Of a stretch of DNA of 64,000 bases, positions 13,014 to 64,000 are shown piece after piece. A program made the position numbers and the translations under genes. Under the pieces are notes generated by a model, which was not told the DNA's origin, searched no databases, and was given only the letters and a program-made list of their open reading frames with translations. Each line of letters opens with the position of its first letter. The stretch's first letter is position 1. The stretch spans positions 1,684 through 65,683 of the forward strand of contig JAZRVS010000129.1 of NCBI GenBank assembly GCA_045599365.1, in the 5' to 3' direction. This DNA comes from Bacteroidales bacterium (lineage in GTDB: Bacteria; Bacteroidota; Bacteroidia; Bacteroidales; UBA1715).

Positions 13014-13158
13014 AGAGTTACAAGAGAAATGTGACATTTTGGTTGCAGAAATCTTGTGGCTCAGAAAAGAAAATTATTCATTAACCTATAAAACAAGAAG
13101 TCAATTTAAAAAAGGAAATCAAGAATGGAAGAAAAGCAAACGGTTTTTAAAGAGCTAA
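12985..13158 (+). CDS. hypothetical small protein (57 aa, below cutoff)
   Basis: AAGGAG RBS at 12972-12977. Hand translation MILNPWKKCRELQEKCDILVAEILWLRKENYSLTYKTRSQFKKGNQEWKKSKRFLKS. TAATG-coupled to the next ORF. Confidence 0.5.
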   Translation: MILNPWKKCRELQEKCDILVAEILWLRKENYSLTYKTRSQFKKGNQEWKKSKRFLKS

Positions 13159-13340
13159 TGTTTATGGCTAGAAACGAAATTGCAATGCCTGAAAAAGAAG
13201 GTGTAAAGCGAGAATATGCGATAAATCTAGCGAAGCTAATGTCAAAGAAAATTGTTTGGGGAAGTGATTTATCAAAATCGTTATTAAGAAGACAATTTTA
13301 TTTGTGTAGAAAAATGAAAGAATTAGAAAGGGAGAATTAA
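13158..13340 (+). CDS. hypothetical protein
   Basis: Track ORF 13125-13340 trimmed to ATG 13158 (MFMARNEI...), which overlaps the upstream stop. Confidence 0.45.
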   Translation: MFMARNEIAMPEKEGVKREYAINLAKLMSKKIVWGSDLSKSLLRRQFYLCRKMKELEREN

Positions 13341-15925: not shown

Positions 15926-16120
15926 ATGAATGAAATGAATGATGACATTCCTGAAGATGATGACGTTTTTTCAGGTTTATTTTTATTTGTTGTTTGTATT
16001 GTAGCTGCAGCGTGTGTATTTTCTGCTGGACTCAAGGTCGGAAAAAATGACACGATAAAAGAACTGTGTCGGAAAAACAGTTATGATTTTTGTGAAACAA
16101 AATGTGGAGTTAATCAATGA
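15926..16120 (+). CDS. small single-pass membrane protein
   Basis: GAGGAG RBS. Hydrophobic segment GLFLFVVCIVAAACVFSAGL. Confidence 0.55.
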   Translation: MNEMNDDIPEDDDVFSGLFLFVVCIVAAACVFSAGLKVGKNDTIKELCRKNSYDFCETKCGVNQ

Positions 16121-16800
16121 CAATTAAATTATACAACAAAGATTGTTTGGAAGTGTTAAAAGAAATCTCCGATAAATCAATTGATTTAGTAATCACAGAC
16201 CCTCCGTACAGAACTATCTCTGGTGGACGGAATGACGATTTATCAAGAAGAAAATACAATTCACCAACTGGAATCTTGGCGAAAAATGATGGGAGAATGT
16301 TTCAACACAACGACATTTCGTTTGAAAGTTGGATTCCAGAAATTTACCGAGTTTTAAAAGATAATTCTGATTTCTATTGTATGACAAACGCTTTGAATTT
16401 ATTTAAGTTATATAATGTTTGTATAAACTCTGGATTTAAATTTCATAACTTGCTTGTCTGGGAAAAGAACAACGCAACACCTAACAAGTGGTATATGAAA
16501 AACTGTGAATACGTTTTATATTTTTACAAAGGATTTGCTAAACCGATAAACAACAAAGGAAGCAAAACCGTTCATAAATTTGATAATGTAAAAATCAAAA
16601 ATCACCCGACAGAAAAACCTTGCTCTTTGATGGAATTTTATGTTATAAATTCATCTGAAGAAGGTGCTCTGGTACTTGACCCATTTATGGGAAGTGGAAG
16701 TACTGGGTTAGCTTGCAAAAACACCAATAGAAATTTTATTGGAATTGAGTTAGACGAAATATATTTTAACATAGCAAAAGAAAGGATTGAAAATGAATAG
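16117..16800 (+). CDS. beta-class DNA methyltransferase (N6-adenine/N4-cytosine family, DPPY type)
   Basis: Motif IV VITDPPY is N-terminal and motif I [11 protein letters not shown] is C-terminal, giving the N6_N4_Mtase architecture. Confidence 0.9.
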   Translation: [227 protein letters not shown]

Positions 16801-17844: not shown

Positions 17845-19598
17845 TATATGACTTTGAAGTATTTAAAGAAGATTGGTTAGTTGTTATTGCAGATTTAGAA
17901 AAAGAAGAAGTGACAACAATAACTAATGACGCTGACAAATTAAGAGCGTTTTATGAATTACATAAACACGATATTTGGATTGGTTTTAATTCAAGAAGTT
18001 ACGACTCGTTTATTTTAAAAGGAATTCTTTGTGGTTACAATCCGTTCAAGATTTCTCAATTCATTATTGAAGACGGAAGAAAAGGCTTTGAGTTTTCAAA
18101 GGAATTCAATCAAATAAAATTTTTAAATTATGATTGTATGACAGGGTTCTTTGGATTAAAAACTTTGGAAGCGTTTATGGGAGATATGATTAAAGAGAGT
18201 GACGTTTCGTTCTTAATTGACAGAAAATTAACTGAAGAAGAACTTGAACAAACAAAGTTTTATTGTGAACACGATGTCAGAGAAACGATTAAAGTTTTTG
18301 CCAACAGGAAAGCAGATTTTGACGCATATCTTTCTATTTTGGAAAAGTTTGATTTACCGATTGAAAATATCAGCAAAACAAAAGCACAATTATCGGCTAT
18401 TGTTTTGGGAGCTAAACGACGTGAGTGTGAAGACGAGTGGGACATTCGCTTACCAGAAACACTTAAAATTGAAAAATACACACACGTTTGCGATTGGTTT
18501 TTGAACGAAGAAAATCACAACGATAACGCAAAGTTGGAAACAGAAATTGATGGCTGTCCACACGTAGTCGCTTGGGGTGGATTACACGGTGCTTTAAATA
18601 GATTTTCTTATAAATGTGAAGATGATGAAGTGCTTGTTATGGCTGACGTTGACCAGCTTTATCCGACAATTATGATTAAATATAATTTGTTGTCACGTGC
18701 AATTACAAAGAAAGATTTGTTTCCGAAAATTTTAGCAATCAGTTTGGAATTGAAAGCAAAAGGTTTGAAAGCACAACGTCTTCCTTATAAAGAAATTTGT
18801 AATATCACTTACGGAGCTATGGGTGACAAGTACAATCCGATGTATGACCCACGAAATAAGAAACTTGTTTGTGTATTTGGTCAGTTGTTGATGATTGACT
18901 TGATTGAGAAAATTGAAGATTTCACGCAGTTAATTCAATCAAACACAGATGGTATTTTAATCAAAGTGAAGAAAGCTGATTTGCCGAGATTGAACGAAGA
19001 AATTGAAAAATGGCAAGATAGGGTAATGCTTCACATGAGTAGTGACGACTATTTGAAAGTTATTCAAAGAGATGTCAATAACTACATTGTCGTTCCGTTT
19101 GGTGAATTGTACGATAAAAAAGGAAAGCCTCGTTGGAAAGCAAAAGGGGCAGTTGTAAAACAGTTGTCAAAATTGGACTATGATTTGCCGATTGTCAACG
19201 AAGCTGTTAAAATGTGGTTTTTAAAAGGAATTCCACCTGAAAAAACGGTGTGGGATTGTGACGAACTGATTAAATTTCAAAACATTTTTAAATTAAGTTC
19301 GGCATATAAAGAAGCACGTATTGGTTGTTCTTTTAGAAAAGAGAAATCAAAAAACGTGTGGAACGAAGACGGAGAAATTTTGAAAGATAAAACTTTTCGG
19401 GTATTTGCTTCGTTAGGAGAAACAGGTGCTTTGTACAAGAAAAAGGACAACAAAAATCCAGAGAAATTTGCTAATTGTCCAGACAACTGTTTCATTGAAA
19501 ACGAATCCATAGTTGGAAAGTCTTGTTCTGAATATCCGTTGTTAGATAAAAATTGGTATGTTGAATTGGCGAATGATAGAATTAGGAAATTTGTGTAA
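17838..19598 (+). CDS. DNA polymerase, family-B-like, with 3'-5' exonuclease domain
   Basis: ExoI VYDFEV, ExoII GFNSRSYDSFIL, ExoIII YCEHDVRET. Motif A DVDQLYPTIM, motif B-like KEICNITYGAMG, motif C-like QSNTDGILI. AAGGAGG RBS. Confidence 0.85.
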   Translation: MLVYDFEVFKEDWLVVIADLEKEEVTTITNDADKLRAFYELHKHDIWIGFNSRSYDSFILKGILCGYNPFKISQFIIEDGRKGFEFSKEFNQIKFLNYDCMTGFFGLKTLEAFMGDMIKESDVSFLIDRKLTEEELEQTKFYCEHDVRETIKVFANRKADFDAYLSILEKFDLPIENISKTKAQLSAIVLGAKRRECEDEWDIRLPETLKIEKYTHVCDWFLNEENHNDNAKLETEIDGCPHVVAWGGLHGALNRFSYKCEDDEVLVMADVDQLYPTIMIKYNLLSRAITKKDLFPKILAISLELKAKGLKAQRLPYKEICNITYGAMGDKYNPMYDPRNKKLVCVFGQLLMIDLIEKIEDFTQLIQSNTDGILIKVKKADLPRLNEEIEKWQDRVMLHMSSDDYLKVIQRDVNNYIVVPFGELYDKKGKPRWKAKGAVVKQLSKLDYDLPIVNEAVKMWFLKGIPPEKTVWDCDELIKFQNIFKLSSAYKEARIGCSFRKEKSKNVWNEDGEILKDKTFRVFASLGETGALYKKKDNKNPEKFANCPDNCFIENESIVGKSCSEYPLLDKNWYVELANDRIRKFV

Positions 19599-20637: not shown

Positions 20638-20820
20638 ATGAAAATGATAGCTATTAAAAAAGGAAACAAAACAACGTATAAGTTTGTGCCAGACGATTAT
20701 GTTGAAGAAGAAGGGGAAACAAAAGACATTCCACAACGTGATTTGACGACAACTGATTGCAACCAGTTGTATTTTGAAATGTCAAAAGAAGATTTTGAGA
20801 AAATATTTAGGAGCATTTAA
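20638..20820 (+). CDS. hypothetical small protein
   Basis: Track ORF 20596 trimmed to ATG 20638 (MKMIAIKKGN...) after AAAGGAA. TAATG-coupled to the SbcD-like gene. Confidence 0.5.
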   Translation: MKMIAIKKGNKTTYKFVPDDYVEEEGETKDIPQRDLTTTDCNQLYFEMSKEDFEKIFRSI

Positions 20821-21710
20821 TGTTAGAAAAAGTAAAGTTGATTGGGGACACGCACTTCGGAAAGGTTTTTAAAACAGGAGTGCCTTACGAAAGACGTGGC
20901 GAAATTGAAGAAAAGTTTTATGAGAAATTTGAAAAAGAGTTAAACGGTTCAGAGGAGTATGTAATTCATCTCGGAGATTTGTTTGACAACGTTGTTGTTT
21001 CTTTTGGAACTATTTTGCGAGTTTATAATCTGATTAAAAATGCAAGTAATTCAAATAAAAGATTTTATTTCATTCGTGGAAATCACGATTCGCAAAGAAA
21101 TAGTTTAGAAACGTCAGCTTTTGATATTTTGTCGGTAATGTTTTTGAACAATTTAAATGTGAATTTTGTTACAGATTATTTTTATATTTCAGATATAAAA
21201 TCACTTCTTATTGGCTGGGATTATCACAACGACAATTCGGAAAAAATTGAAGAAATAATTAAAGAAGAAAAACCAGATTTTGTTTTAGGTCACTTTGACG
21301 AAGTTTTGCCAGATTATTTATTTTCTTATACTGGAAAAGTTTATTCTGGACACATTCATAACGCACACAAATCTGGAAATACAACTTATGTTGGCAGTTT
21401 GTTGCCACTTGCTTTCGGGGAAGAAAGTGACGATTCGCTTATGATGACACTCACGTTAGACGAATTTCTTTCAAAGAGAGAAGATGAAATCAAAGACAAA
21501 CGAATTCGTGTTGTGTTAAAAGAAGGTGAAACTTTGCAAAACGTGAGAAATTGTTTGCAACTCGTTTTACAAAACGTGAAAAAAGAAGAAAATGTAAAAT
21601 TAGATGTTGAAATGGATTCTTTTGATATGCGACAACTTTTCAAAGAAGAATTGCCAGAAGAAATTTTTGAAGAAATGTATAACGAATATGTGGGGTTACT
21701 GGAATGCTAA
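20820..21710 (+). CDS. SbcD/Mre11-like nuclease (calcineurin-like phosphoesterase)
   Basis: Motifs IGDTHFG, HLGDLFD, IRGNHD, GHFD and GHIH in canonical order. Confidence 0.9.
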   Translation: MLEKVKLIGDTHFGKVFKTGVPYERRGEIEEKFYEKFEKELNGSEEYVIHLGDLFDNVVVSFGTILRVYNLIKNASNSNKRFYFIRGNHDSQRNSLETSAFDILSVMFLNNLNVNFVTDYFYISDIKSLLIGWDYHNDNSEKIEEIIKEEKPDFVLGHFDEVLPDYLFSYTGKVYSGHIHNAHKSGNTTYVGSLLPLAFGEESDDSLMMTLTLDEFLSKREDEIKDKRIRVVLKEGETLQNVRNCLQLVLQNVKKEENVKLDVEMDSFDMRQLFKEELPEEIFEEMYNEYVGLLEC

Positions 21711-23503
21711 ATAAATTATCAGTTACAAACGGAGTTAAGGGGAATCTGGATTTAGATTTTCATAAAGGTGTGACAATCATTCAAGGTGAAAACGGCAAAG
21801 GCAAATCATTAGTTCAAGAATACATTAGATTTGCTTTGTTTGGAACAAGTGCTTTACGTGGAAAAGCAAGTGAATATCCAAAACAAATGTCTGTCACATT
21901 GACTTTTACAATAAATGACAATGAACATATCATTAAACGAACATTAAATGATTGTTATTTTGACAACACCGTTGTTGGAACGACAGCTTGTAACAAAGCA
22001 ATTGTTAAATTACTTGGCTATGATTTATCAATTTTTGATATGGGAAATTGTGCTAAACAATTTGAAATTACAAAATTAGGTGAAATGAAACCGACAGAAA
22101 GAAAGCAGGCAGTTGATAAGTTAATTGGCATTGATTGTATTGAAAAACTTGAAAAGAAAGTAAAAGAAAAATTGCAAGCTGTTAACGGAGCTTTGTCAGT
22201 TATCCCTGATATTTTGAGAGAACCACAATTTCCAGAATTAGGATATGTTCCAGAATTAGATATGGAACGAGAATTACGCTTAATCACACAACAAGAAATG
22301 ATGATTTCAGAAATCAATAAAATGAAATCACAGGGTGTTGAAAAATGTGACGAGCCGATTAAACCGAACGGCACTTACGAAAAAGCAGTCCTAAAGAAAA
22401 GTTTATATGACGAATTGAAAAATATCGTTGTTGAAGAAATTTCTGATGAATATAATTCTGCCGAAAAAATTTACGATTTAATTAGCAAACGTCAAGCGTG
22501 GGATAACTTCGGAGAAATCCCAGAAGAGCCTTCAATGACATTAGAAGAAATCTCACAAGAAGAAAAGAAATGGTCAGATTGGAACGCTTGGCAAAATTCA
22601 AAGAAAGCAACTTGTCCCGATTGTGGAAAAGTGTTTTCATTGACAGGTGTTGAAGAATGTGAAAAACCGACTTATGATTTGTCTTATTTGAGAAATCAAA
22701 AAGAGTTAATTCAAAAGTTAGAAAGAATGCCGAAGTTTGAAAAGCCATACGAAACTGTTTCTGAATTAAACAAAAAGCTTTCTGATTTAACAAAGTTTTT
22801 GAATTACAAATCAAAAAAAGAAGAATTAGAAAAACTTGAAGATGAAACTTCGGTTGAAAATTGGGACACATACAACTCTGATTTAATTAAATATAAGAAA
22901 TACTTGGAATTAGAAAATCTTGTAAATGTTTTATTGAATAGCGAACACCCTGCGTTAAACCGAAATCTTTATAATAAATATCAGCAAACGATTTTGGAAA
23001 ATAAAGTAAAACAAGAAAATTATGAAAGAGAATTGTCCGACTACAAAACAAAAATTAAAATAAAAGAAACTTATGAAAAACAGAAAAAGTTATACACAGA
23101 AACTTTGGAAGGGCTTAAACGAATTAAATTACGTGTAAAATCAACGATAACGCCGAGTTTATCACGAGTCGCAAGTGAAATTTCTTCTGATATGACAGAC
23201 GGAGTTGTGTCAAAAGTTGAAATTAGCGAAAGTTTTGAAATAACAGTTAATGGAAAATCAATCGGTTTGCTATCTGGAAGTGAAAAAGCAGTTGCTAATT
23301 TGGCGATTCGTTTAGCATTGGGTCGCATTTTGACACACAAAGTTTTAAACATTTTCATTGGTGACGAAATTGACGCAAGTATGGACGACGAAAGAGCGTT
23401 GCTTGTTTCAAAATCATTACACAAACTTGCTTCACAAATTGACCAAGTTATCTTGATTTCGCATAAAAAAGTTGAAGGCGATTACATTATAACAATTCGT
23501 TAG
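21704..23503 (+). CDS. SbcC/Rad50-like ATPase
   Basis: Walker A GENGKGKS, central CPDCGK zinc-hook-like CxxC within coiled coil, signature LSGSEK, Walker B IFIGDEIDASMD. Confidence 0.9.
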   Translation: MLNKLSVTNGVKGNLDLDFHKGVTIIQGENGKGKSLVQEYIRFALFGTSALRGKASEYPKQMSVTLTFTINDNEHIIKRTLNDCYFDNTVVGTTACNKAIVKLLGYDLSIFDMGNCAKQFEITKLGEMKPTERKQAVDKLIGIDCIEKLEKKVKEKLQAVNGALSVIPDILREPQFPELGYVPELDMERELRLITQQEMMISEINKMKSQGVEKCDEPIKPNGTYEKAVLKKSLYDELKNIVVEEISDEYNSAEKIYDLISKRQAWDNFGEIPEEPSMTLEEISQEEKKWSDWNAWQNSKKATCPDCGKVFSLTGVEECEKPTYDLSYLRNQKELIQKLERMPKFEKPYETVSELNKKLSDLTKFLNYKSKKEELEKLEDETSVENWDTYNSDLIKYKKYLELENLVNVLLNSEHPALNRNLYNKYQQTILENKVKQENYERELSDYKTKIKIKETYEKQKKLYTETLEGLKRIKLRVKSTITPSLSRVASEISSDMTDGVVSKVEISESFEITVNGKSIGLLSGSEKAVANLAIRLALGRILTHKVLNIFIGDEIDASMDDERALLVSKSLHKLASQIDQVILISHKKVEGDYIITIR

Positions 23504-28943: not shown

Positions 28944-31900
28944 TGGCAAGAATACCCGACACATATCAAGAGGTTGAATATTTAAGAGGTACTGGAACGC
29001 AATATATCCGTACGAGTTATTTTGCGACTGGAAACACAAGCATTAAAATTAAATTCAGAGTTAATGAATTGAAAGGTTACGGTATCTTTGGTTCTCGTGA
29101 TACCACGACACCAACAAACGCTTATTTAATGTGGGGTGCAGGAGCAGGATTTTGGCGTGCACAATACGGTAATCAAAACTTTGTTTCGGAAATAGAACGT
29201 GATACCGAGTGGCACACTTGGGAACAACGGAAAAACGCTTGCTTTTTAGACGGTAAGTTGTTTTATACTTTTGAAAAACAGACGTTTCAAAACTCATACG
29301 AGCAATTATTGTTCGGTATCGGAAGTAGTGCGACTACTATAACTGGCTTGTATGTTGCAAAAAATGACATCGGCGTTGTGGAATATTGGGAAAATACCGA
29401 ATTAACAATGCAGTTAATTCCTTGTTATCGCAAAGCTGATAAAGAGGCAGGATATTACGATACTATTTATGACGAGTTTTTAACAAATGCAGGAACAGGC
29501 AAGTTTGAAGTTGGTCCTGACGTTTTATACGAAGACGAAGTACAAGAAGTTGAATATATTTACGGAACAGGTACGCAATACATTGACGGTGGAGTTATCG
29601 GTAAAACTGGCGAATATAAAATACGGACAAAGATAAGAACAAGCGATAACATATCGGGCTTGCAATCTATTTATGGCGTTAGAAAAGATAGTGGAAATAC
29701 TCGGTTTATGCTTGGTTTTTATACATCAAGCAATCAGATAAAGTTTGACTTCGCCATTAACACAGATAACTTTGGACAAGTTGTTTCTAAAAATACCGAT
29801 TATGAGTTTGAAGCAGATTATACAACTGACACAAGAACATTGAAAATTAACGGAGTTGTAAATATAACCAGTAGTGATTCATTGGACACAGGTGGAAATA
29901 TTTATATATTCGGTTATAACCGTATGTGGCAACCTGTGTCACAAATGACTTCGTTCTTCGTTGGTCGTATGTACGAGTTTGATATAATTGATAAAAACGG
30001 AAAAAGCATTTTATCATTAAAGCCTGCCTATCGTAAATCAGATAATAAAACAGGAATGTATGACAGAAAAAGAAAAGTGTTTTTTCCTAATTTAGGAGCA
30101 GGAGAGTTTTTACTTGGAGAAAACGTTTATCGTAAAGATTTACGTATGATTTATTGGCAGGGTGCTAATTCTCAACCTTTACCAAGTGAATATCAAGCAG
30201 TTGAATACGTTGAAAGTGCAGGTGCGTCAACAGACACAGCTAACACACATTCAATAGATTTAGGTTTTAAAGGAAATCAAGACACTGTTATGAATTGCAC
30301 TGTCGCAATGCTGAATAGTCCTAGACGTGTGTTCGGTAATAATACAATTTCAAGTAAAGCGATAACGTTATGTTTAGCAAGTTCAGGTAGCGAAATAAAT
30401 CGTTTTGGTACAAACTCGGTAACAGGTGCAATTCCTAGCACTTTGAAAATGGGCGAGTTTCAAAATTATACCGTTGATAAAAATGGCATTTATTGTGACG
30501 GACAACAAATTGCCGAATATTCGCCAGTTAGTTTTGAAACTGACGGAAACTTGAGATTTTTAACTATTGGTGGTTATGCACCAAATGTCGGTGTTTTAAG
30601 AGTTAAAAATTTTGAAATTGTCGGTAAAGTCAAGCTACAGGCTTGCAAAAGGAAAACTGACAATGTTGCAGGATTTTACGACTTTGTTTCAGGCGAGTTT
30701 AAAACTTGTGACGGATTAACTGCAGGGAATGACATTTATTATAAACAACAAATAAGATTTTTTTATACAGAAGCAAGTACGACAAAATTGCCTAATGAAT
30801 ATCAAGAAGTAAATTATATCAGTGGAACTAGCTATAATAGTTATATGGTTTCCGATTACAAGGCAAGTAGTAATACTCGTGTTGTTGTTGAAGCACGACC
30901 AAAAGGCAATGGTGGCTGGCTATTCGGAGCAAGAAGTGGTACAGGTTATACTGACTCATTTTCTTTAATGTTCGCTGCAAACGCTACTTATCCTCAATTT
31001 GGAAACGACGCTCAAACAATTGAAAGAGGATTTATTGATGGTGCAAAACATACGTTTAAACTATCGCAAGACGGTTTCTTCGTTGACGATGAGCAGATAA
31101 CAACATTTATGGCTCAAACATTCCAGTCTACCCACAATCAGTATTTGCTATGTATGAACAATAATGAAGTTAAAGCAAATGGATTTATTGGTGATGTTTT
31201 TAGTGTGAGATATTACGAAGGAAGCCAACTCGTTCGTGATTATGTACCATGCTATCGCAAGGCTGATAATGTTATTGGCTTGTATGACATAATCAATGGA
31301 AAATTCTGTGTCAATGTAGGAACGGTCAATTATGAAAAAGGTCCTTGTGTGCATATACCGAGTGAATATCAAGAAGTTGAATATATTGAATCTGACGGCA
31401 ACCAATACATAAATACTGGATATACAGGTAACATTGACACCGAAGTTAATTATCACGGAAAATTTTTGAGTGCGACAGGTACATTTTTTCAAATATTCGG
31501 AAACAACGTAACAAGCAGTAGAGCGTTAACTGTCAACTTAAATATAACTGGTAACGCAGCGACAAGCCGTTTTGGTAATAAAACAGCGTCAATGTCGTAT
31601 AGAGTACCAGCAGACGCAGAAGTTACATTAAAATTAAACAAAAACGTTTTCGGCTACATTGACAACAAAGGATATTTACAAGCGTCGCCGATTGACGCAA
31701 CAACATCTTTCACCACAAATGGAACACTTCATTTAATGTTTGTCAATGGTGACTCTTATAAAGGTGCTTCTCAATTTTATGAATCAACAATAGTTCAAGC
31801 TGGAGTTGTTGCTCGTAAATATAAACCTGTTTATCGTAAGGCAGACGGTGTTATCGGAGTTTATGACGTTATAACAGGAACGTTCTTGACAAATGCGGGA

Positions 31901-57150: not shown

Positions 57151-58866
57151 TTACCATCGCTTTCGTATTGTATTGTTAAATCTTCTGTTAGAATACTCTA
57201 ATAAATCGTCATTGTAAAGCTCTTTTTGAGCTCCACCAAAATCTAACCACTCTCTCGTTTCTTTTGTTTCGTTCAAACCAATTTCAAAGTTTCCGATTTC
57301 AATGGCTATGAACGAATATGCTAATGCGTGGAAAAAGTGGTCGTTCCCTCTAATCTTTTTCCAAATAGGCTGTTTGTCGGCATTGGAATCATCTCTAAAC
57401 ATATCTCTTAAATGCTCAATCAAAACATTTTGATATGTGGTGTAGCCATACAATTCCAAGAAACCAGAGTTAATTCCTTGCATAATTAAATCCAAAGCAT
57501 TAGTTCTGTTTGCTCTGTAATATGATATTTCTCCGGCAACCTCTTTTACTGGTTCAACCGTTTTACCGTAGCTATATTCAATCGGAAAAATTCTTCGGTT
57601 TGACATATCTCTTATTTCATTTGATGTCGGAGTATATGGGTATCTATCAATAGCTCCATAGACAATGTTGTATTTCTTACACAATTCTTCAACTGTCGGT
57701 TTCAACGCCTCTGGAGGAACTGCTGTGAAATAAAAAGCGTGTCTTTTACTTGTTGACAAAACAATGTGACAAGAACTACCCATATCAATTCCAATAAAAA
57801 CAGGTGTTGCACTATTTATTTCAGGAACACGACTTTCTTTCATACAAGCAATAATCGCAGATTTATCTAATCGTGTCTGCGAGTCGCTGTATTCTTCTCC
57901 TAATACGGTGTTAATTCCACGTCTTATTTCGTTTTTCTTAATAAAGTCTGCCATTGTCGTTACCAAATATCTAATTGATAAAACACTTGAAGAAAATGGT
58001 CTTACCCAATATCCGTGTGTATATCTATCAGGAAATTCGGCAACCCATTCTCGTCTATCTCCATTTGAAAGCTCTTTAATCGGCTTTCCACACTTTTCAC
58101 AGAACACGTAAGCGTTGTCTAAATCTAATCCAGCTACAATGCTTTCTGTTAATTCTGTTTTTAAATCTGTAACTTCATCTGGCAAACCTGGAATGTGAAC
58201 AAAAGCTCTGTCATACAACGGAACTTGCCAATGCCCACAATGTTCACATTTATAAAAGTATTCTCTTTTGTCAGAACTCTCATATTCCAAAGAAATTCCG
58301 TAACCAGAAAACGTTGGCGTTGAAAAACCGTGCTTTATTTTATAATCTGAACCCTGAATACGAGAATTAACTAACGCCAAGAACTCTTGGTTTGACAAAT
58401 CGTACTCGTCATTCATAATAAAGTCAACTGCAGTTGACGTAGCCGACGATTCGGTGTTCGCCGATATATATAAAAACGAATCGTTTAATTGCATAACGTC
58501 ATTATTTCTAATATCTTCTTTTCTAGCTGGAAAATCGTTATCAAAAATCGGCTTAATACGAGTTTGTGCCTGAATTTTCTTCATAACTAAATCAGGATAA
58601 GTGTATAAACCAGTAACTCCTTTGTTTCGTGCCAAGAAACCTATCATTTTTCTGTAGTTAATCTCAGATAAACCAACCTGTGATAACTTTTTAACACAAA
58701 CAGAGGGGTGCATATCGTCAGCAATCGCCTTTTGAAAGGGATATTTTGTAAAAGAAAACTTATTTCCTGCACGAGTCGTATTCGCACAAATCCAATCGCC
58801 CATTGTAGCAACTGCAGCTCTTTCTTTTAGTCTGTTTGCAAATCTTTCTAAATAGTCGTTTGCCAT
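57151..58866 (-). CDS. terL: terminase large subunit (GpA-like)
   Basis: Trimmed to MANDYLERF... with an AAGGAG RBS. VCVKKLSQVGLSEI matches the GpA-type K.aQ.G.SE ATPase motif. Cys pairs CEHCGHW...CEKCGKP. Confidence 0.85.
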   Translation of the reverse strand: MANDYLERFANRLKERAAVATMGDWICANTTRAGNKFSFTKYPFQKAIADDMHPSVCVKKLSQVGLSEINYRKMIGFLARNKGVTGLYTYPDLVMKKIQAQTRIKPIFDNDFPARKEDIRNNDVMQLNDSFLYISANTESSATSTAVDFIMNDEYDLSNQEFLALVNSRIQGSDYKIKHGFSTPTFSGYGISLEYESSDKREYFYKCEHCGHWQVPLYDRAFVHIPGLPDEVTDLKTELTESIVAGLDLDNAYVFCEKCGKPIKELSNGDRREWVAEFPDRYTHGYWVRPFSSSVLSIRYLVTTMADFIKKNEIRRGINTVLGEEYSDSQTRLDKSAIIACMKESRVPEINSATPVFIGIDMGSSCHIVLSTSKRHAFYFTAVPPEALKPTVEELCKKYNIVYGAIDRYPYTPTSNEIRDMSNRRIFPIEYSYGKTVEPVKEVAGEISYYRANRTNALDLIMQGINSGFLELYGYTTYQNVLIEHLRDMFRDDSNADKQPIWKKIRGNDHFFHALAYSFIAIEIGNFEIGLNETKETREWLDFGGAQKELYNDDLLEYSNRRFNNTIRKRW

Positions 58867-58925
58867 ATCAACTCCTTGATTTTTATAGATTAGCAAAAAA
58901 ATTTTAAAAAAGCAACATTTTTTTC

Positions 58926-58955
58926 TTGACTTATTTTGTAAAAGTGTGCCATAGT
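58926..58955 (+). promoter_or_regulatory. sigma70-type promoter of the rightward replication arm
   Basis: TTGACT 58926-58931, 18 nt, TGcCATAGT 58947-58955. GTGTGCCA is repeated at 58944 and 58954. CTTGACT (58925) pairs with AGTCAAG (58961) as an inverted repeat. Confidence 0.55.
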
Positions 58956-58986
58956 GTGCCAGTCAAGAAAAGAAAGTGAGGAAATT

Positions 58987-59433
58987 ATGAATTTATCTAA
59001 AATGTTTTCGTTGTTGAACAGACACAATGTTATCTGTTTTAACAAAAAGAACGAATTATCAAGGCATTGGATATACCAAAATTGCAATAGCATTGAAAGA
59101 AACAAATTTGTAAGAGAACTTCTCAGTTGTTTAGACGTACAAAGTGTTCGGTATGACGGTTCTTGTTTAAAGAAAAAATGTAACATTGACCGTTGTGTTA
59201 ACCCAGATTGTTATGAAGTTTGCTTTAGAAAAAAAGATTCTATATCAAACAGTTTTTCTTACGAAGATATGCTTGATTTAGCTGAAATGATTGATTTAGA
59301 GAAGATATGCCAGATTGGTGAAAAGAAATACTTAGAGATTTTCAATAATGAACAACCAGATTTTCTTAAAATAACAATGAAAGACCTTAAAAAAACAATA
59401 GAATTTGTTAAAATGAAAGAAAAGGAGATATAA
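58987..59433 (+). CDS. hypothetical Cys-rich protein (degenerate His-Me-finger-like Cx3CVNPxC)
   Basis: GTGAGGA RBS. CNIDRCVNPDCYEV resembles the C...CVNP.HL motif of HNH-type homing endonucleases but lacks the His. Confidence 0.5.
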   Translation: MNLSKMFSLLNRHNVICFNKKNELSRHWIYQNCNSIERNKFVRELLSCLDVQSVRYDGSCLKKKCNIDRCVNPDCYEVCFRKKDSISNSFSYEDMLDLAEMIDLEKICQIGEKKYLEIFNNEQPDFLKITMKDLKKTIEFVKMKEKEI

Positions 59434-59633
59434 TGTTAAAATATAATGTTAAAGAATTTGCCGAAATGTTAGGCATTTCAAGACGTACTATGTACCGATA
59501 TATTGAACGTGGTGACATTACGCCAAAAACAAACTTTAGAGGAAAACGCTTTTTCACAGCTGACCAATTGGAAGAATATCAAAACTTAATAAACGAGGAA
59601 AAAGAAAATGGAATATCCACAGATAGAATTTAA
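59433..59633 (+). CDS. MerR/excisionase-type HTH DNA-binding protein
   Basis: VKEFAEMLGISRRTMYRYIERGDI is the classical excisionase/AlpA-family HTH. Confidence 0.75.
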   Translation: MLKYNVKEFAEMLGISRRTMYRYIERGDITPKTNFRGKRFFTADQLEEYQNLINEEKENGISTDRI

Positions 59634-60030
59634 AAAAGTGTACGAACTGCTTTCATTTATGCTTGAATTAAAGAAAAATCCAAGTTTGTTAGATAAAGCT
59701 CCGTATGATGATATGACAAAAAAAGCGTTGTCAGATGTTCTTCTTAAAAAATATTCAGATGACGATACTTCAAAGAAAAACTTACACGACGTTGACATTG
59801 AAGAAGAAACAGTGCGTTTATACGAATCAATGCAGTTAATTGATATTAAAGAAGATTTAGACCCTCGTGAACAAATCGCTTTAATCAAATTGAAGACAAC
59901 CACATTAAAAGATTTGCTGGATATGATGAAAGAATCCAAAGAAATCAAAAATGTAAGACAATTTGAAAACGCTGTTTTAGAAATATTAACAGAAGAACAA
60001 GCAAATAGAGTTATTGACTTAATTAAATAG
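59608..60030 (+). CDS. hypothetical protein
   Basis: Packed ORF upstream of the primase. Confidence 0.5.
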   Translation: MEYPQIEFKKVYELLSFMLELKKNPSLLDKAPYDDMTKKALSDVLLKKYSDDDTSKKNLHDVDIEEETVRLYESMQLIDIKEDLDPREQIALIKLKTTTLKDLLDMMKESKEIKNVRQFENAVLEILTEEQANRVIDLIK

Positions 60031-62636: not shown

Positions 62637-62693
62637 CCAGCAAGTAACAAAGAACTTGAACTAATAGAAAAAAGAAAGGGAAATAAGTTATGA
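62604..62693 (+). CDS. uORF2 (29 aa) created by repeat copy 2
   Basis: MKTSRNLVSVKPASNKELELIEKRKGNKL. Its stop overlaps the methyltransferase ATG (ATGA at 62690-62693). Confidence 0.4.
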   Translation: MKTSRNLVSVKPASNKELELIEKRKGNKL

Positions 62694-63484
62694 CATTAGA
62701 AATTATAGAATATATCAGAGAACAGGGAGGCAATCTCCCTGTTCAGGAAGCCAACTCACAATTATATAACGGAGATTGCTTTGAAATTATGGAGGAAATG
62801 ATACAAAAAGGCGTTAAAGTTGACGCAATTATAACATCACCTCCATATAATATGAATTTACGTGTCAGAAAAGGAAAATATGTGAGTCGCTGTGGATATA
62901 AAGAATCCGTAAATGAATTCTCAACAAAATACAAAAACTTTTCAGACGATTTGCCAATGGACAAATACTTTGAGCAACAAAAAGAATTTTTAACAAAAGC
63001 ATTAACATTGTCGGACATTGTTTTTTATAATATTCAAATGATTACTGGAAACAAACCAGCATTGTTCAAACTTCTCGGAGAATTTTCAGACAAAATTAAA
63101 GAAGTAATTATATGGAACAAAGGCTATGCTCAACCAGCTATGATGTCTAAAATGTTGAATTCTCAATTTGAATTTATTTTTGTACTCCAGAATAGCAAAC
63201 CTTATAACAGAGCCTTTGATGTTTGCAATTTTGCTCGTGGAACTGAAACAAATGTGTGGGATATAAAAAGAGAACGAAACACAAAACACAAAGCCTCTTT
63301 TCCAGTTGAGCTAGTTGAACGTATTTTGAGAAATTTTACAACAGAAAATTCAACTGTGCTTGACCCATTTATGGGCTCTGGAACAACAGGTGTCGCTTGC
63401 AAGAATTTGAATCGTAATTTTATCGGAATAGAATTGGATAAAGAATATTATCAAATAGCTAAAAAGAGCATTGAGATGAGATGA
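62690..63484 (+). CDS. beta-class DNA methyltransferase (SPPY type, N4-cytosine or N6-adenine)
   Basis: Motif IV IITSPPY, motif I LDPFMGSGTTG. The C-terminal ~40 aa nearly match those of ORF 16117. Confidence 0.9.
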   Translation: MTLEIIEYIREQGGNLPVQEANSQLYNGDCFEIMEEMIQKGVKVDAIITSPPYNMNLRVRKGKYVSRCGYKESVNEFSTKYKNFSDDLPMDKYFEQQKEFLTKALTLSDIVFYNIQMITGNKPALFKLLGEFSDKIKEVIIWNKGYAQPAMMSKMLNSQFEFIFVLQNSKPYNRAFDVCNFARGTETNVWDIKRERNTKHKASFPVELVERILRNFTTENSTVLDPFMGSGTTGVACKNLNRNFIGIELDKEYYQIAKKSIEMR

Positions 63485-63487
63485 GTG

Positions 63488-63595
63488 CTTGGAGCTGGTG
63501 TTGGTGGCAAGTGGTGAGTGCCCAGCTCAAAATAAGCTGCTCCAAGTAGTAAGTGCCAAGTGCCCAGCTCCAAGTTCCCATACGCTTGGAGCTGG
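63488..63595. repeat. five copies of the 11-mer CTTGGAGC(T/A)G(G/C) in alternating orientation
   Basis: Forward copies at 63488-63498 and 63585-63595. Reverse copies at 63522-63528 (partial), 63536-63546 and 63564-63574. The region is locally GC-rich. Confidence 0.85.
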
Positions 63596-63690
63596 CACAC
63601 TTGAAAATCAAAAATTGGGTCGGTTGGTGTGAGGGAGTGGGTTGGGAAGTTATCCTGTTTTTTCGGTATATTTTAGGGATGGGCTTTTTT

Positions 63691-63730
63691 TAACTAGGTG
63701 CACAACCTAGTTATTTTTTTTTATTTTTTA
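63691..63730 (+). terminator. rho-independent terminator
   Basis: TAACTAGGT-gcaca-ACCTAGTTA hairpin followed by a long T-rich tract. Confidence 0.75.
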
Positions 63731-63741
63731 TAAAAAACATC

Positions 63742-63770
63742 TTGACAATTTAAAAAAAAAGTGATATAGT
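63742..63770 (+). promoter_or_regulatory. sigma70-type promoter
   Basis: TTGACA 63742-63747, 17 nt, TGaTATAGT 63762-63770. Confidence 0.65.
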
Positions 63771-63810
63771 TAATATATCAAAAGGCAATAAAGCCTTTTG
63801 ATATATTAAC
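63769..63810. promoter_or_regulatory. 18-bp perfect palindrome (operator or leader hairpin)
   Basis: GTTAATATATCAAAAGGC-aataaa-GCCTTTTGATATATTAAC. It begins inside the -10 hexamer. Confidence 0.7.
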
Positions 63811-63837
63811 AAAAAAAAAAAAAAAAAAAAAAAAAAA
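63811..63837 (+). repeat. A27 homopolymer
   Basis: 27 consecutive A counted in the sequence, between the palindrome and the AAGGAG RBS. Confidence 0.95.
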
Positions 63838-63853
63838 CATTAAGGAGTCCAAC

Positions 63854-64000
63854 ATGACTATATACTTTATAAATAAAGAAACCATTGCAAAAATTGAAAA
63901 AACAACAAAAACCACAAGTTTTAATGCGCTTGTAACCTATGCGCTAGACTCTAAAAAAAGACTTGCTGACAACAAAGATTTTAACAACGATTTTAAAAAA
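63854..64000 (+). CDS. hypothetical protein, 3'-truncated by the window end
   Basis: AAGGAG RBS at 63842-63847, ATG at 63854. Open to the last base (MTIYFINKETIAKIEKTTKTTSFNALVTYALDSKKRLADNKDFNNDFKK...). Confidence 0.55.
   Translation, partial: MTIYFINKETIAKIEKTTKTTSFNALVTYALDSKKRLADNKDFNNDFKK

Follow-up and report, generated by a model that had tools for sequence, protein, structure and literature searches.

A GC-rich island at positions 63485-63660 of a 64,000-nt stretch of phage DNA (contig JAZRVS010000129.1, from a Bacteroidales bacterium assembly; the whole stretch is referred to here as the window) is likely to flank the left edge of a long direct terminal repeat (DTR), judging by gene order and by an architecture shared with relatives. 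The island carries clustered copies of a short site that recurs on the promoter of the primase operon, and includes a core – one inverted site, an A-tract and the start of a G-run – that is conserved among related phages. In four independent cultured relatives the left DTR edge lies just after the primase operon, the place that the core occupies. The fuller reading, that the island is the unique-sequence flank at the left edge of a DTR of about 2 kb and that its array of protein sites positions end formation, we regard as evenly balanced. The exact creation of long DTRs by terminases is understood for very few phages, and in this clade it is apparently unstudied.

Repeats and conserved core

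The preliminary description of this DNA had noted five copies of an 11-mer, CTTGGAGCTGG, within about 110 bp, and the count is borne out: a scan of the window finds exact copies at 63488(+), 63564(-) and 63585(+), and copies with two mismatches at 63522(-) and 63536(-). With up to two mismatches allowed the window holds 16 matches, against 5.7 ± 2.2 in shuffled sequence (none of 100 shuffles reaches 16), and five of the 16 are packed into 110 bp. The repeat unit is really about 18 nt long, AAGTG(T)GCCAGCTCCAAG, with the 11-mer as its 3′ half and an operator motif, AGTGTGCCA, as its 5′ half. The GTGC reported in front of several copies is present, but belongs to this longer unit and is not a separate element.

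Five units can be delineated. U4 (AAGTGCCCAGCTCCAAG, 63557-63574, plus strand) and U5 (CTTGGAGCTGGCACACTT, 63585-63602, minus strand reading AAGTGTGCCAGCTCCAAG) are the left and right arms of a perfect palindrome, in which 11-nt segments at 63564-63574 and 63585-63595 are 100% complementary across a 10-nt gap – the hairpin of 11 bp with a 10-nt loop described earlier – and U5 contains the conserved operator 9-mer. U2 (AGTGCCCAGCTCAAAA, 63516-63531, plus strand) is the inverted partner of U1 (GTG-CTTGGAGCTGG, 63485-63498, minus strand, where it reads CCAGCTCCAAGCAC) in a looser palindrome, with 10-nt arms that are 90% complementary and 23 nt apart. The weaker copies are U1, a degenerate version of the ~18-nt site, and U3 (AAGCTGCTCCAAG, 63533-63546, plus strand), a degenerate copy that lacks the AGTG half. 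A direct repeat of 39 nt with 42-nt spacing is also present in the island.

For comparison we used 31 related loci (given L numbers where they must be told apart) fetched from ENA and Logan assemblies, the only sources that yielded relatives with the same gene order and 57-73% primase identity. The 11-mer is private to the window's phage, since none of the 31 has a match. Absence of the repeats from syntenic relatives had been named beforehand among the grounds for rejecting the proposed functions, and for the 11-mer this absence is complete. The conserved portion is TGGCACAC together with the A-tract box, to which the preliminary description had not drawn attention. The core spans 63593-63635 (TGGCACACTTGAAAATCAAAAATTGGGTCGGTTGGTGTGAGGG). 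It consists of the inverted operator motif (63593-63601, TGGCACACT on the minus strand, an inverted copy of the 9-mer AGTGTGCCA, which reads TGGCACAC on the plus strand), the A-tract box TTGAAAATCAAAAATT (63601-63616, plus strand) and the start of a G-run segment (GGGTCGGTTGGTGTGAGGGAGTGGGTTGGG, 63617-63646, plus strand), the first part of which (GGGTCGG.T.GTG.G.GGG) is conserved in the family alignments. In the nearest lineages, whose primase is 73% identical, the core is 81-84% identical, and it is recognisable down to lineages with 58% primase identity. The site is at the same position in every family member, and the position of the core is constant: the last primase-operon gene stands just ahead of it, and a terminator, a T-run and a strong promoter follow.

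A site shared with the primase-operon promoter

The motif AGTGTGCCA occurs exactly four times in the 64 kb: at 58943 and 58953, inverted in the island at 63593, and inside a gene at 29210. The first two form a tandem operator pair (AGTGTGCCAT-AGTGTGCCA, 58943-58961, plus strand, 10-bp spacing) that overlaps the -10 element of the primase-operon promoter (TTGACT at 58926-58931, an 18-nt spacer and CATAGT at 58950-58955). This promoter is divergent from terL, the gene for a gpA-type large terminase (57151-58896, minus strand), and drives open reading frame (ORF) A, a gene for an HTH_17/MerR-like protein, ORF C and the primase-helicase gene. In every lineage tandem sites cover the promoter spacer and the -10 element.

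Operator and first core box change together across lineages, through the variants GCCA, GTCA, GCAA and AAAG. The site common to operator and core is GTGTGCCA in the window and L007, GTGTGTCA in L011 and L022, GTGTGCAA in L026 and GTGTAAAG in L013. The L026 8-mer occurs three times in 18.4 kb, each time at an operator or core place, and the L013 9-mer six times in 22.5 kb (0.26 expected), always within three non-coding clusters. L007, L013 and L022 have a third cluster of sites, 1.9-2.3 kb downstream of the core, which in L007 is a tandem pair, again 10 bp apart. Because the same site is paired on the -10 element of the primase operon, it is probable that the island repeats are ~18-bp sites for a sequence-specific, phage-encoded protein that also acts at this operator.

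The HTH_17/MerR-like protein (66 aa; 59433-59633, plus strand) appears to be the best candidate for the binder, because its recognition helix varies in step with the site, a correspondence drawn from few lineages. Helices SRRTMYRY and SRRTLYRY (RY) accompany the variable half-site GCCA, RRTLYRW (RW) accompanies GTCA, SRRTLYYW (YW) GCAA, and SRVTIYSY (V..SY) AAAG. The protein scores 20.4 bits on the Pfam family Terminase_5 (cut-off 20.3) and has weak matches to small-terminase PHROGs. Since the site is also found on the primase-operon promoter, the binder may be a regulator instead of, or besides, a terminase subunit.

The HTH_17 ORF overlaps ORF C (59608-60030) by 26 nt in a different frame, an arrangement similar in most relatives, with L026 as an exception, and the two together would match a small terminase in size. 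ORF C is the sole one of the three genes upstream of the primase gene that is common with the cultured phages JWF and EAb13; its AlphaFold model (predicted local distance difference test score 53) was judged unusable. ORF A (58987-59433) is family-specific, matches no Pfam or PHROG entry and has one invariant motif, C-x4-C-V-x-P-x-C, and its product is another possible DNA-binding protein for the sites.

Terminal-repeat edges in cultured relatives

No close relative of the window's phage was found in cultured-phage records, IMG/VR, JGI metagenomes or GTDB. Comparison of the region by blastn with 50,697 phage records matched the methyltransferase gene and nothing else, the primase peptides and the hairpin pattern had no match in IMG/VR, and the core pattern had none in IMG/VR, JGI metagenomes or GTDB (185,579 species genomes). 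The nearest cultured phages are 33-42% identical in primase, have the layout portal-terL(-)/ORF C-primase(+), and encode a large terminase in the same PHROG, 675, as that of the window.

In four independent cultured relatives – EAb13 (with fJoAci04), Seuss, Lumi and JWF – a long DTR has its left edge immediately past the primase operon. The DTR of Acinetobacter phage EAb13 is 2177 bp, from PhageTerm (PMC10508131), and that of Acinetobacter phage fJoAci04, also determined with PhageTerm, is about 2.2 kb (79465-81646). Caulobacter phage Seuss has a DTR of 1748 bp, from PAUSE (PMC4591317). Both copies are present in the records of Xylophilus phage Lumi (2298 bp) and Achromobacter phage JWF (1466 bp), and are 100% identical in each. 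The sequences at the edges are not described in the announcements of EAb13 and Seuss (PMC10508131, PMC4591317).

Outside the left edge of these phages there is often a terminator hairpin, followed by lineage-specific, G-rich short repeats, an A-tract and the edge itself; beyond the edge lie a strong promoter and small genes, as in the layout of the window. From A-tract to edge there are 21 nt in EAb13 (GAAAATTTTTAGAACGGAGATACTGAACACT/GTCGC, the slash marking the edge), 22 nt in Seuss (CAAAAATTTCACCGGGGTGTTTTTCGAACAG/TCGAC), 21 nt in Lumi (CAAAATTTTTCCCGGGCGTAAGTGTAGGGTG/ACATC) and 7 nt in JWF (CAAAAATTTTACAATTG/TGGGG). The cultured relatives thus resemble the window in portal, terL(-), ORF C and primase(+), and in G-rich repeats, A-tract, promoter and small genes. 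They differ in lacking ORF A and the HTH_17 gene and in their low primase identity, and their ends are measured or recorded, whereas that of the window is predicted.

On the same strand, the far flank of the DTR is rich in C in EAb13, Lumi, JWF and the family loci, and the G-rich repeats therefore face the DTR from both sides. In Lumi an exact 22-mer from the terL/ORF C intergenic region recurs at two sites that lie 8-50 nt beyond the right DTR edge; this appears to repeat the promoter-to-flank link of the window's family, here in a phage with defined ends. The 12-mer TGAAAAATAAGG lies 44 nt outside the right edge of EAb13 and recurs exactly in L007 and L022; in L022 it is contained in an imperfect palindrome of about 300 bp (16040-16440), some 2.3 kb downstream of the core. 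The flank of Seuss yielded chance-level 8-mers only. The window ends at position 64000, short of any right DTR edge, and comparison of its end with the rest of the window revealed no second copy. The source contig is 68,118 bp long, and a right edge would be expected in the roughly 4 kb of it outside the window.

A predicted left end and how it might be formed

With the 7-22-nt spacing between A-tract and edge of the cultured relatives applied to the window, the left end of the packaged genome is predicted near 63624-63638, inside the G-run. Three layers can be proposed. A phage-specific cluster of four to five copies of the ~18-bp AAGTG(T)GCCAGCTCCAAG site, in both orientations, would be bound by a phage protein, most likely the HTH_17/MerR-like protein of the primase operon. 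The family-wide core would join one inverted site (TGGCACAC) to the A-tract box TTGAAAATCAAAAATT, probably a bend, and a G-rich stretch would then hold the physical left end, 7-22 nt past the A-tract. Bound protein and bent A-tract would mark the point on the concatemer, at the repeat edge, for a cut or nick by the gpA-type large terminase, with a second cluster of sites about 2 kb downstream, outside the window, marking the other edge of the DTR. That the module serves end formation by the terminase is plausible, at chances that we put slightly short of even.

A packaging site was one of four candidate functions in the preliminary description and is the best fit among them, the equivalent place being a DTR edge in four cultured relatives, which indicate such an edge rather than cos or headful pac. 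Several points weigh against our interpretation. For the window's phage and the metagenomic members both DTR and end are predicted from sequence. The bridge from the window to the cultured phages appears to consist of synteny and shared architecture: none of the cultured-phage flanks was matched significantly by an nhmmer profile built from the family cores, and homology to these flanks is therefore not claimed. In JWF the motif common to promoter region and flank resembles a promoter consensus. L026 has the core with no upstream repeats, so that the repeat arrays are dispensable. The sites overlap a -10 element, as would those of a transcriptional repressor, the candidate binder is encoded within the replication operon and not next to terL, and its gene is absent from JWF, EAb13 and Lumi. 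Contig ends near the island in L005, L006 and L008 were considered as evidence of termini and judged uninformative, because DTR genomes assemble as circles and the region is rich in repeats and homopolymers.

In a rival reading the sites are purely transcriptional – operators or roadblocks for an HTH_17 repressor that would silence the primase operon and screen it from the early region, with the nearness to a repeat edge incidental. The tandem sites that cover spacer and -10 element in every lineage agree with this, proteins of the HTH_17/MerR/excisionase type are commonly regulators, the Lumi flank sites lie just upstream of a ribosome-binding site (RBS) and ATG, and on the minus strand the core resembles the upstream half of a promoter (a T-rich stretch, then the site), although without a -10 element. 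A minus-strand promoter at the core was rejected, no lineage having an acceptable -10. The next promoter lies about 150 nt downstream of the core site, which overlaps no promoter, no conserved minus-strand gene lies to the left of the core, and in several relatives intrinsic terminators already part the units. A role in transcription alone also leaves unexplained the conserved A-tract and the symmetry of G-rich and C-rich flanks around the DTR edges, and we consider it unlikely.

The same sites could be those of an iteron-type replication origin, at which an initiator from the primase operon (the HTH_17 protein or the primase-helicase) binds and autoregulates its promoter, with melting beginning in the adjacent A/T-rich DNA. 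The preliminary description had listed such an origin, and part of the proposal stands: the island is directly 3′ of the primase-helicase operon, the operon's own promoter carries the motif (58943-58961), site specificity is lineage-specific and covaries, the A-tract adjoins the sites with a stretch of 17-20% GC following at 63700-63850, and the second cluster about 2 kb away recalls P4 ori/crr. The regular direct repeats of an iteron array are missing, however: the copies are mainly inverted and irregularly spaced (23, 10 and 42 nt), not the three or more direct copies in helical phase that define iterons, and the lineages have just one site in common at the core, the array of several copies being private to the window's phage. 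Moreover, the same place is a DTR edge in four cultured lineages, and the spacing of the site clusters matches DTR lengths. GC skew, suggested earlier as a check, does not help an origin here, as its turning points track gene orientation and do not pick out the island; a PDB sequence search with the primase found nothing informative on an origin-binding domain. An origin at the island thus seems improbable.

If the island does flank a DTR, the reading could be extended to the whole clade, from the gut-metagenome phages to the Acinetobacter, Caulobacter, Xylophilus and Achromobacter siphoviruses. Co-evolving sites of a small DNA-binding protein, at its own promoter beside terL and on both DTR flanks, would then form a changeable 'address', a tentative idea that we think more doubtful than the local one. 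The protein, the A-tract box and the G-rich/C-rich arrays facing the DTR (often prone to form G-quadruplexes) would set the cut of the gpA-type terminase, the whole amounting to a split small-terminase specificity factor that may also time transcription of the replication operon.

The placement of the end near 63624-63638, with a repeat of about 2 kb, can be tested as a specific prediction for this uncultured gut phage. The protein/site pair has natural specificity variants (GCCA, GTCA, GCAA and AAAG) that could be swapped to probe end formation, transcription or replication, and the signature of G-rich repeats, site, A-tract and strong promoter could locate the true ends of circular-looking, metagenome-assembled relatives.

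Composition, RNA structure and recombination

The island is GC-rich, as first described, with a GC content of 0.52-0.54 at 63500-63650, where the window ranges from 0.29 to 0.38 and the genome has about 0.33, and is followed by a GC-poor stretch (0.17-0.26 at 63650-63850). The conspicuous GGG-n13-GGG-n3-GGG-n2-GGG at 63617-63646 is the sole motif with four G3 runs in the 64 kb, and the top G4Hunter score of the window, 1.52, falls at 63622. Conservation does not sustain the emphasis once placed on the 11-mer and on a G-quadruplex. A canonical form of the latter – four runs of at least three G with loops of 1-7 nt, conserved – is not found: the first loop is 13 nt. Arrays prone to form G-quadruplexes are stronger in relatives by G4Hunter, but placed elsewhere, and L026 has none.

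The hairpins might belong to a structured RNA, either a 3′ untranslated region or a small RNA, that stabilises or regulates the methyltransferase transcript. No terminator precedes the island in the window's phage, which makes the earlier statement that it would be transcribed as a 3′ untranslated region plausible there, and folding gives z = -2.15 on the plus strand and z = -3.31 on the minus strand. In several relatives, however, a terminator hairpin lies upstream of the equivalent region, and the 11-mers that form the hairpin are absent from all of them. In an Rfam scan at permissive E-values the best hit in the island has an E-value of 0.62, to a microRNA model and far below its gathering score, and RNAalifold finds 0 consensus pairs across 7 lineages. 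With neither a consensus pair nor an Rfam match the proposal of a structured RNA is unsupported, and we hold it to be very improbable.

Even less can be said for an attP-like integration site or other recombination site, which inverted repeats and a nearby excisionase-like HTH_17 gene might suggest. A tRNA/tmRNA scan found no tRNA, whole or fragmentary, there is no integrase among the ten large ORFs scanned, and the core pattern is absent from the GTDB genomes. The set of replication and recombination genes, and the relatives, are those of virulent siphoviruses, and EAb13 is predicted to be virulent (PMC10508131). This part of the preliminary description can be set aside as extremely improbable.

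Surroundings of the island and variation among relatives

Downstream of the core the alignments show a second conserved block, TGTTTTTTCGGTATATTTT, then AGGGATGGGC and a T-run (63657-63691, plus strand); its counterpart in relatives is TTTTTGTCTAYTTTT, followed by a C-run or G-run and T-runs. A terminator had been placed at 63691, and an intrinsic-terminator-like hairpin is found there (63691-63713, 9 bp with a 5-nt loop), ending in a T9 run (63691-63722 overall, plus strand). A strong sigma-70-like promoter with a TG extension, TTGACA-17-TATAGT (63742-63770, plus strand), is conserved in relatives and drives the first gene (start 63854) of an array of small plus-strand genes; it is presumed to be the first early promoter inside the terminal repeat. 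Directly 3′ of it lies a near-perfect 42-nt hairpin (63769-63810), and then an A27 run (63811-63837), the sole homopolymer of at least 12 nt in the window, ahead of the RBS (63842-63847) and ATG (63854). Relatives have no A-run at the equivalent place. Short tandem repeats directly upstream of gene RBSs also occur in L003 ((CAAA)n, 18940-18975) and L022 ((GGAACAA)n, 16661-16705), presumably in the region past the repeat.

The array appears to be an optional and fast-evolving part of the module and the core the constrained one, because each lineage has its own repeats upstream of the core and L026 has none. These are G/T-rich runs in L003-L006, (ACTAGAC)x9 in L009, TTAGGG-like repeats in L011 and about 15 copies of a 16-nt unit in L022, whereas in L026 the core follows directly after a coding gene. 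The tandem copies of the L022 unit, GGCACTCACAGGGSAG, stand downstream of the primase terminator and ahead of the core (13140-13330). In L011 and L012 (L011 12455-12535; L012 12720-12940) the repeats upstream of the core (GGGGATTAGGGTGTTAGGG, G4Hunter 2.32) are telomere-like and G-rich, and a tandem array, (CGAATGCCTGCC)n, lies downstream; its copy number varies between two assemblies of one phage, and it interrupts the scaffold with N gaps. ORFs of 47-50 aa within the island were considered as a possible small protein and rejected as not conserved, the underlying sequence not being conserved.

The slot between primase gene and core (window 62690-63484; L003 12512-15481; L005 12510-16497; L007 12506-15575; L026 10445-11310) looks like a hot spot for accessory-gene exchange. 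Its cargo differs from one relative to the next and includes N6_N4 and MT-A70 methyltransferases, DUF3310 proteins, a 642-aa protein and, in L026, a coding gene without an identified function. The window has a second N6_N4 DNA methyltransferase, with a Metallophos and SMC_N/AAA_23 pair (SbcCD/Mre11-Rad50-like), in its plus-strand block (16117-16800 and 20820-23503). Primase relatives of 41-43% identity are also present in two isolate assemblies, Inquilinus limosus MP06 (L028, a 119,858-bp contig) and Chelativorans composti (L029, a 7,920-bp contig); the former may be integrated or co-assembled, because the contig exceeds any phage of the clade.

Relationship to known systems

Elements of this general kind are known, while this layout is undescribed for this little-studied group of phages. 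The origins of SaPIs, P4 and iteron plasmids have an initiator that autoregulates its own promoter through the same sites, with melting in adjacent A/T-rich DNA. Like SaPI and P4 origins, the island lies 3′ of an operon for a primase-helicase, has sites specific to each lineage and adjoins A/T-rich DNA; it differs in having one conserved site and inverted, irregular copies, and in a position that corresponds to the DTR edges of relatives.

At the concatemer junction of T7 the terminal repeat is flanked by short-repeat arrays and pac elements. The likeness lies in an exact direct terminal repeat with short-repeat arrays, and in end formation that needs sequences outside the repeat. T7, however, has a repeat of 160 bp, an unrelated terminase, its own RNA polymerase and no operator-type site common with a promoter. 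In SPP1 the small terminase binds the pacL and pacR boxes that flank the cut at pacC, and binding sites on both sides of the cut region and intrinsically bent DNA recall the arrangement proposed here. SPP1 packages by headful with one pac cut per concatemer, whereas two fixed edges about 2 kb apart are expected for the window's phage.

In lambda cos, the R-sites of cosB, bound by the winged-helix domain of Nu1, stand with an IHF bend beside the nick site cosN. The arrangement proposed for the island resembles cos in a short site that is repeated in both orientations and would bind a small winged-helix/MerR-like protein, in a probable bend between sites and predicted cut, and in a large terminase of the gpA family. 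The cohesive ends of lambda are 12 nt, in contrast to the direct terminal repeats of 1.5-2.3 kb in the window's relatives, and cos is directly upstream of the terminase genes, whereas 4.6 kb separate the island from terL, which is on the other side of the primase operon. Unlike in lambda, the candidate binder is a protein of 66 aa whose gene does not adjoin terL, and its site would double as the operator of a promoter.

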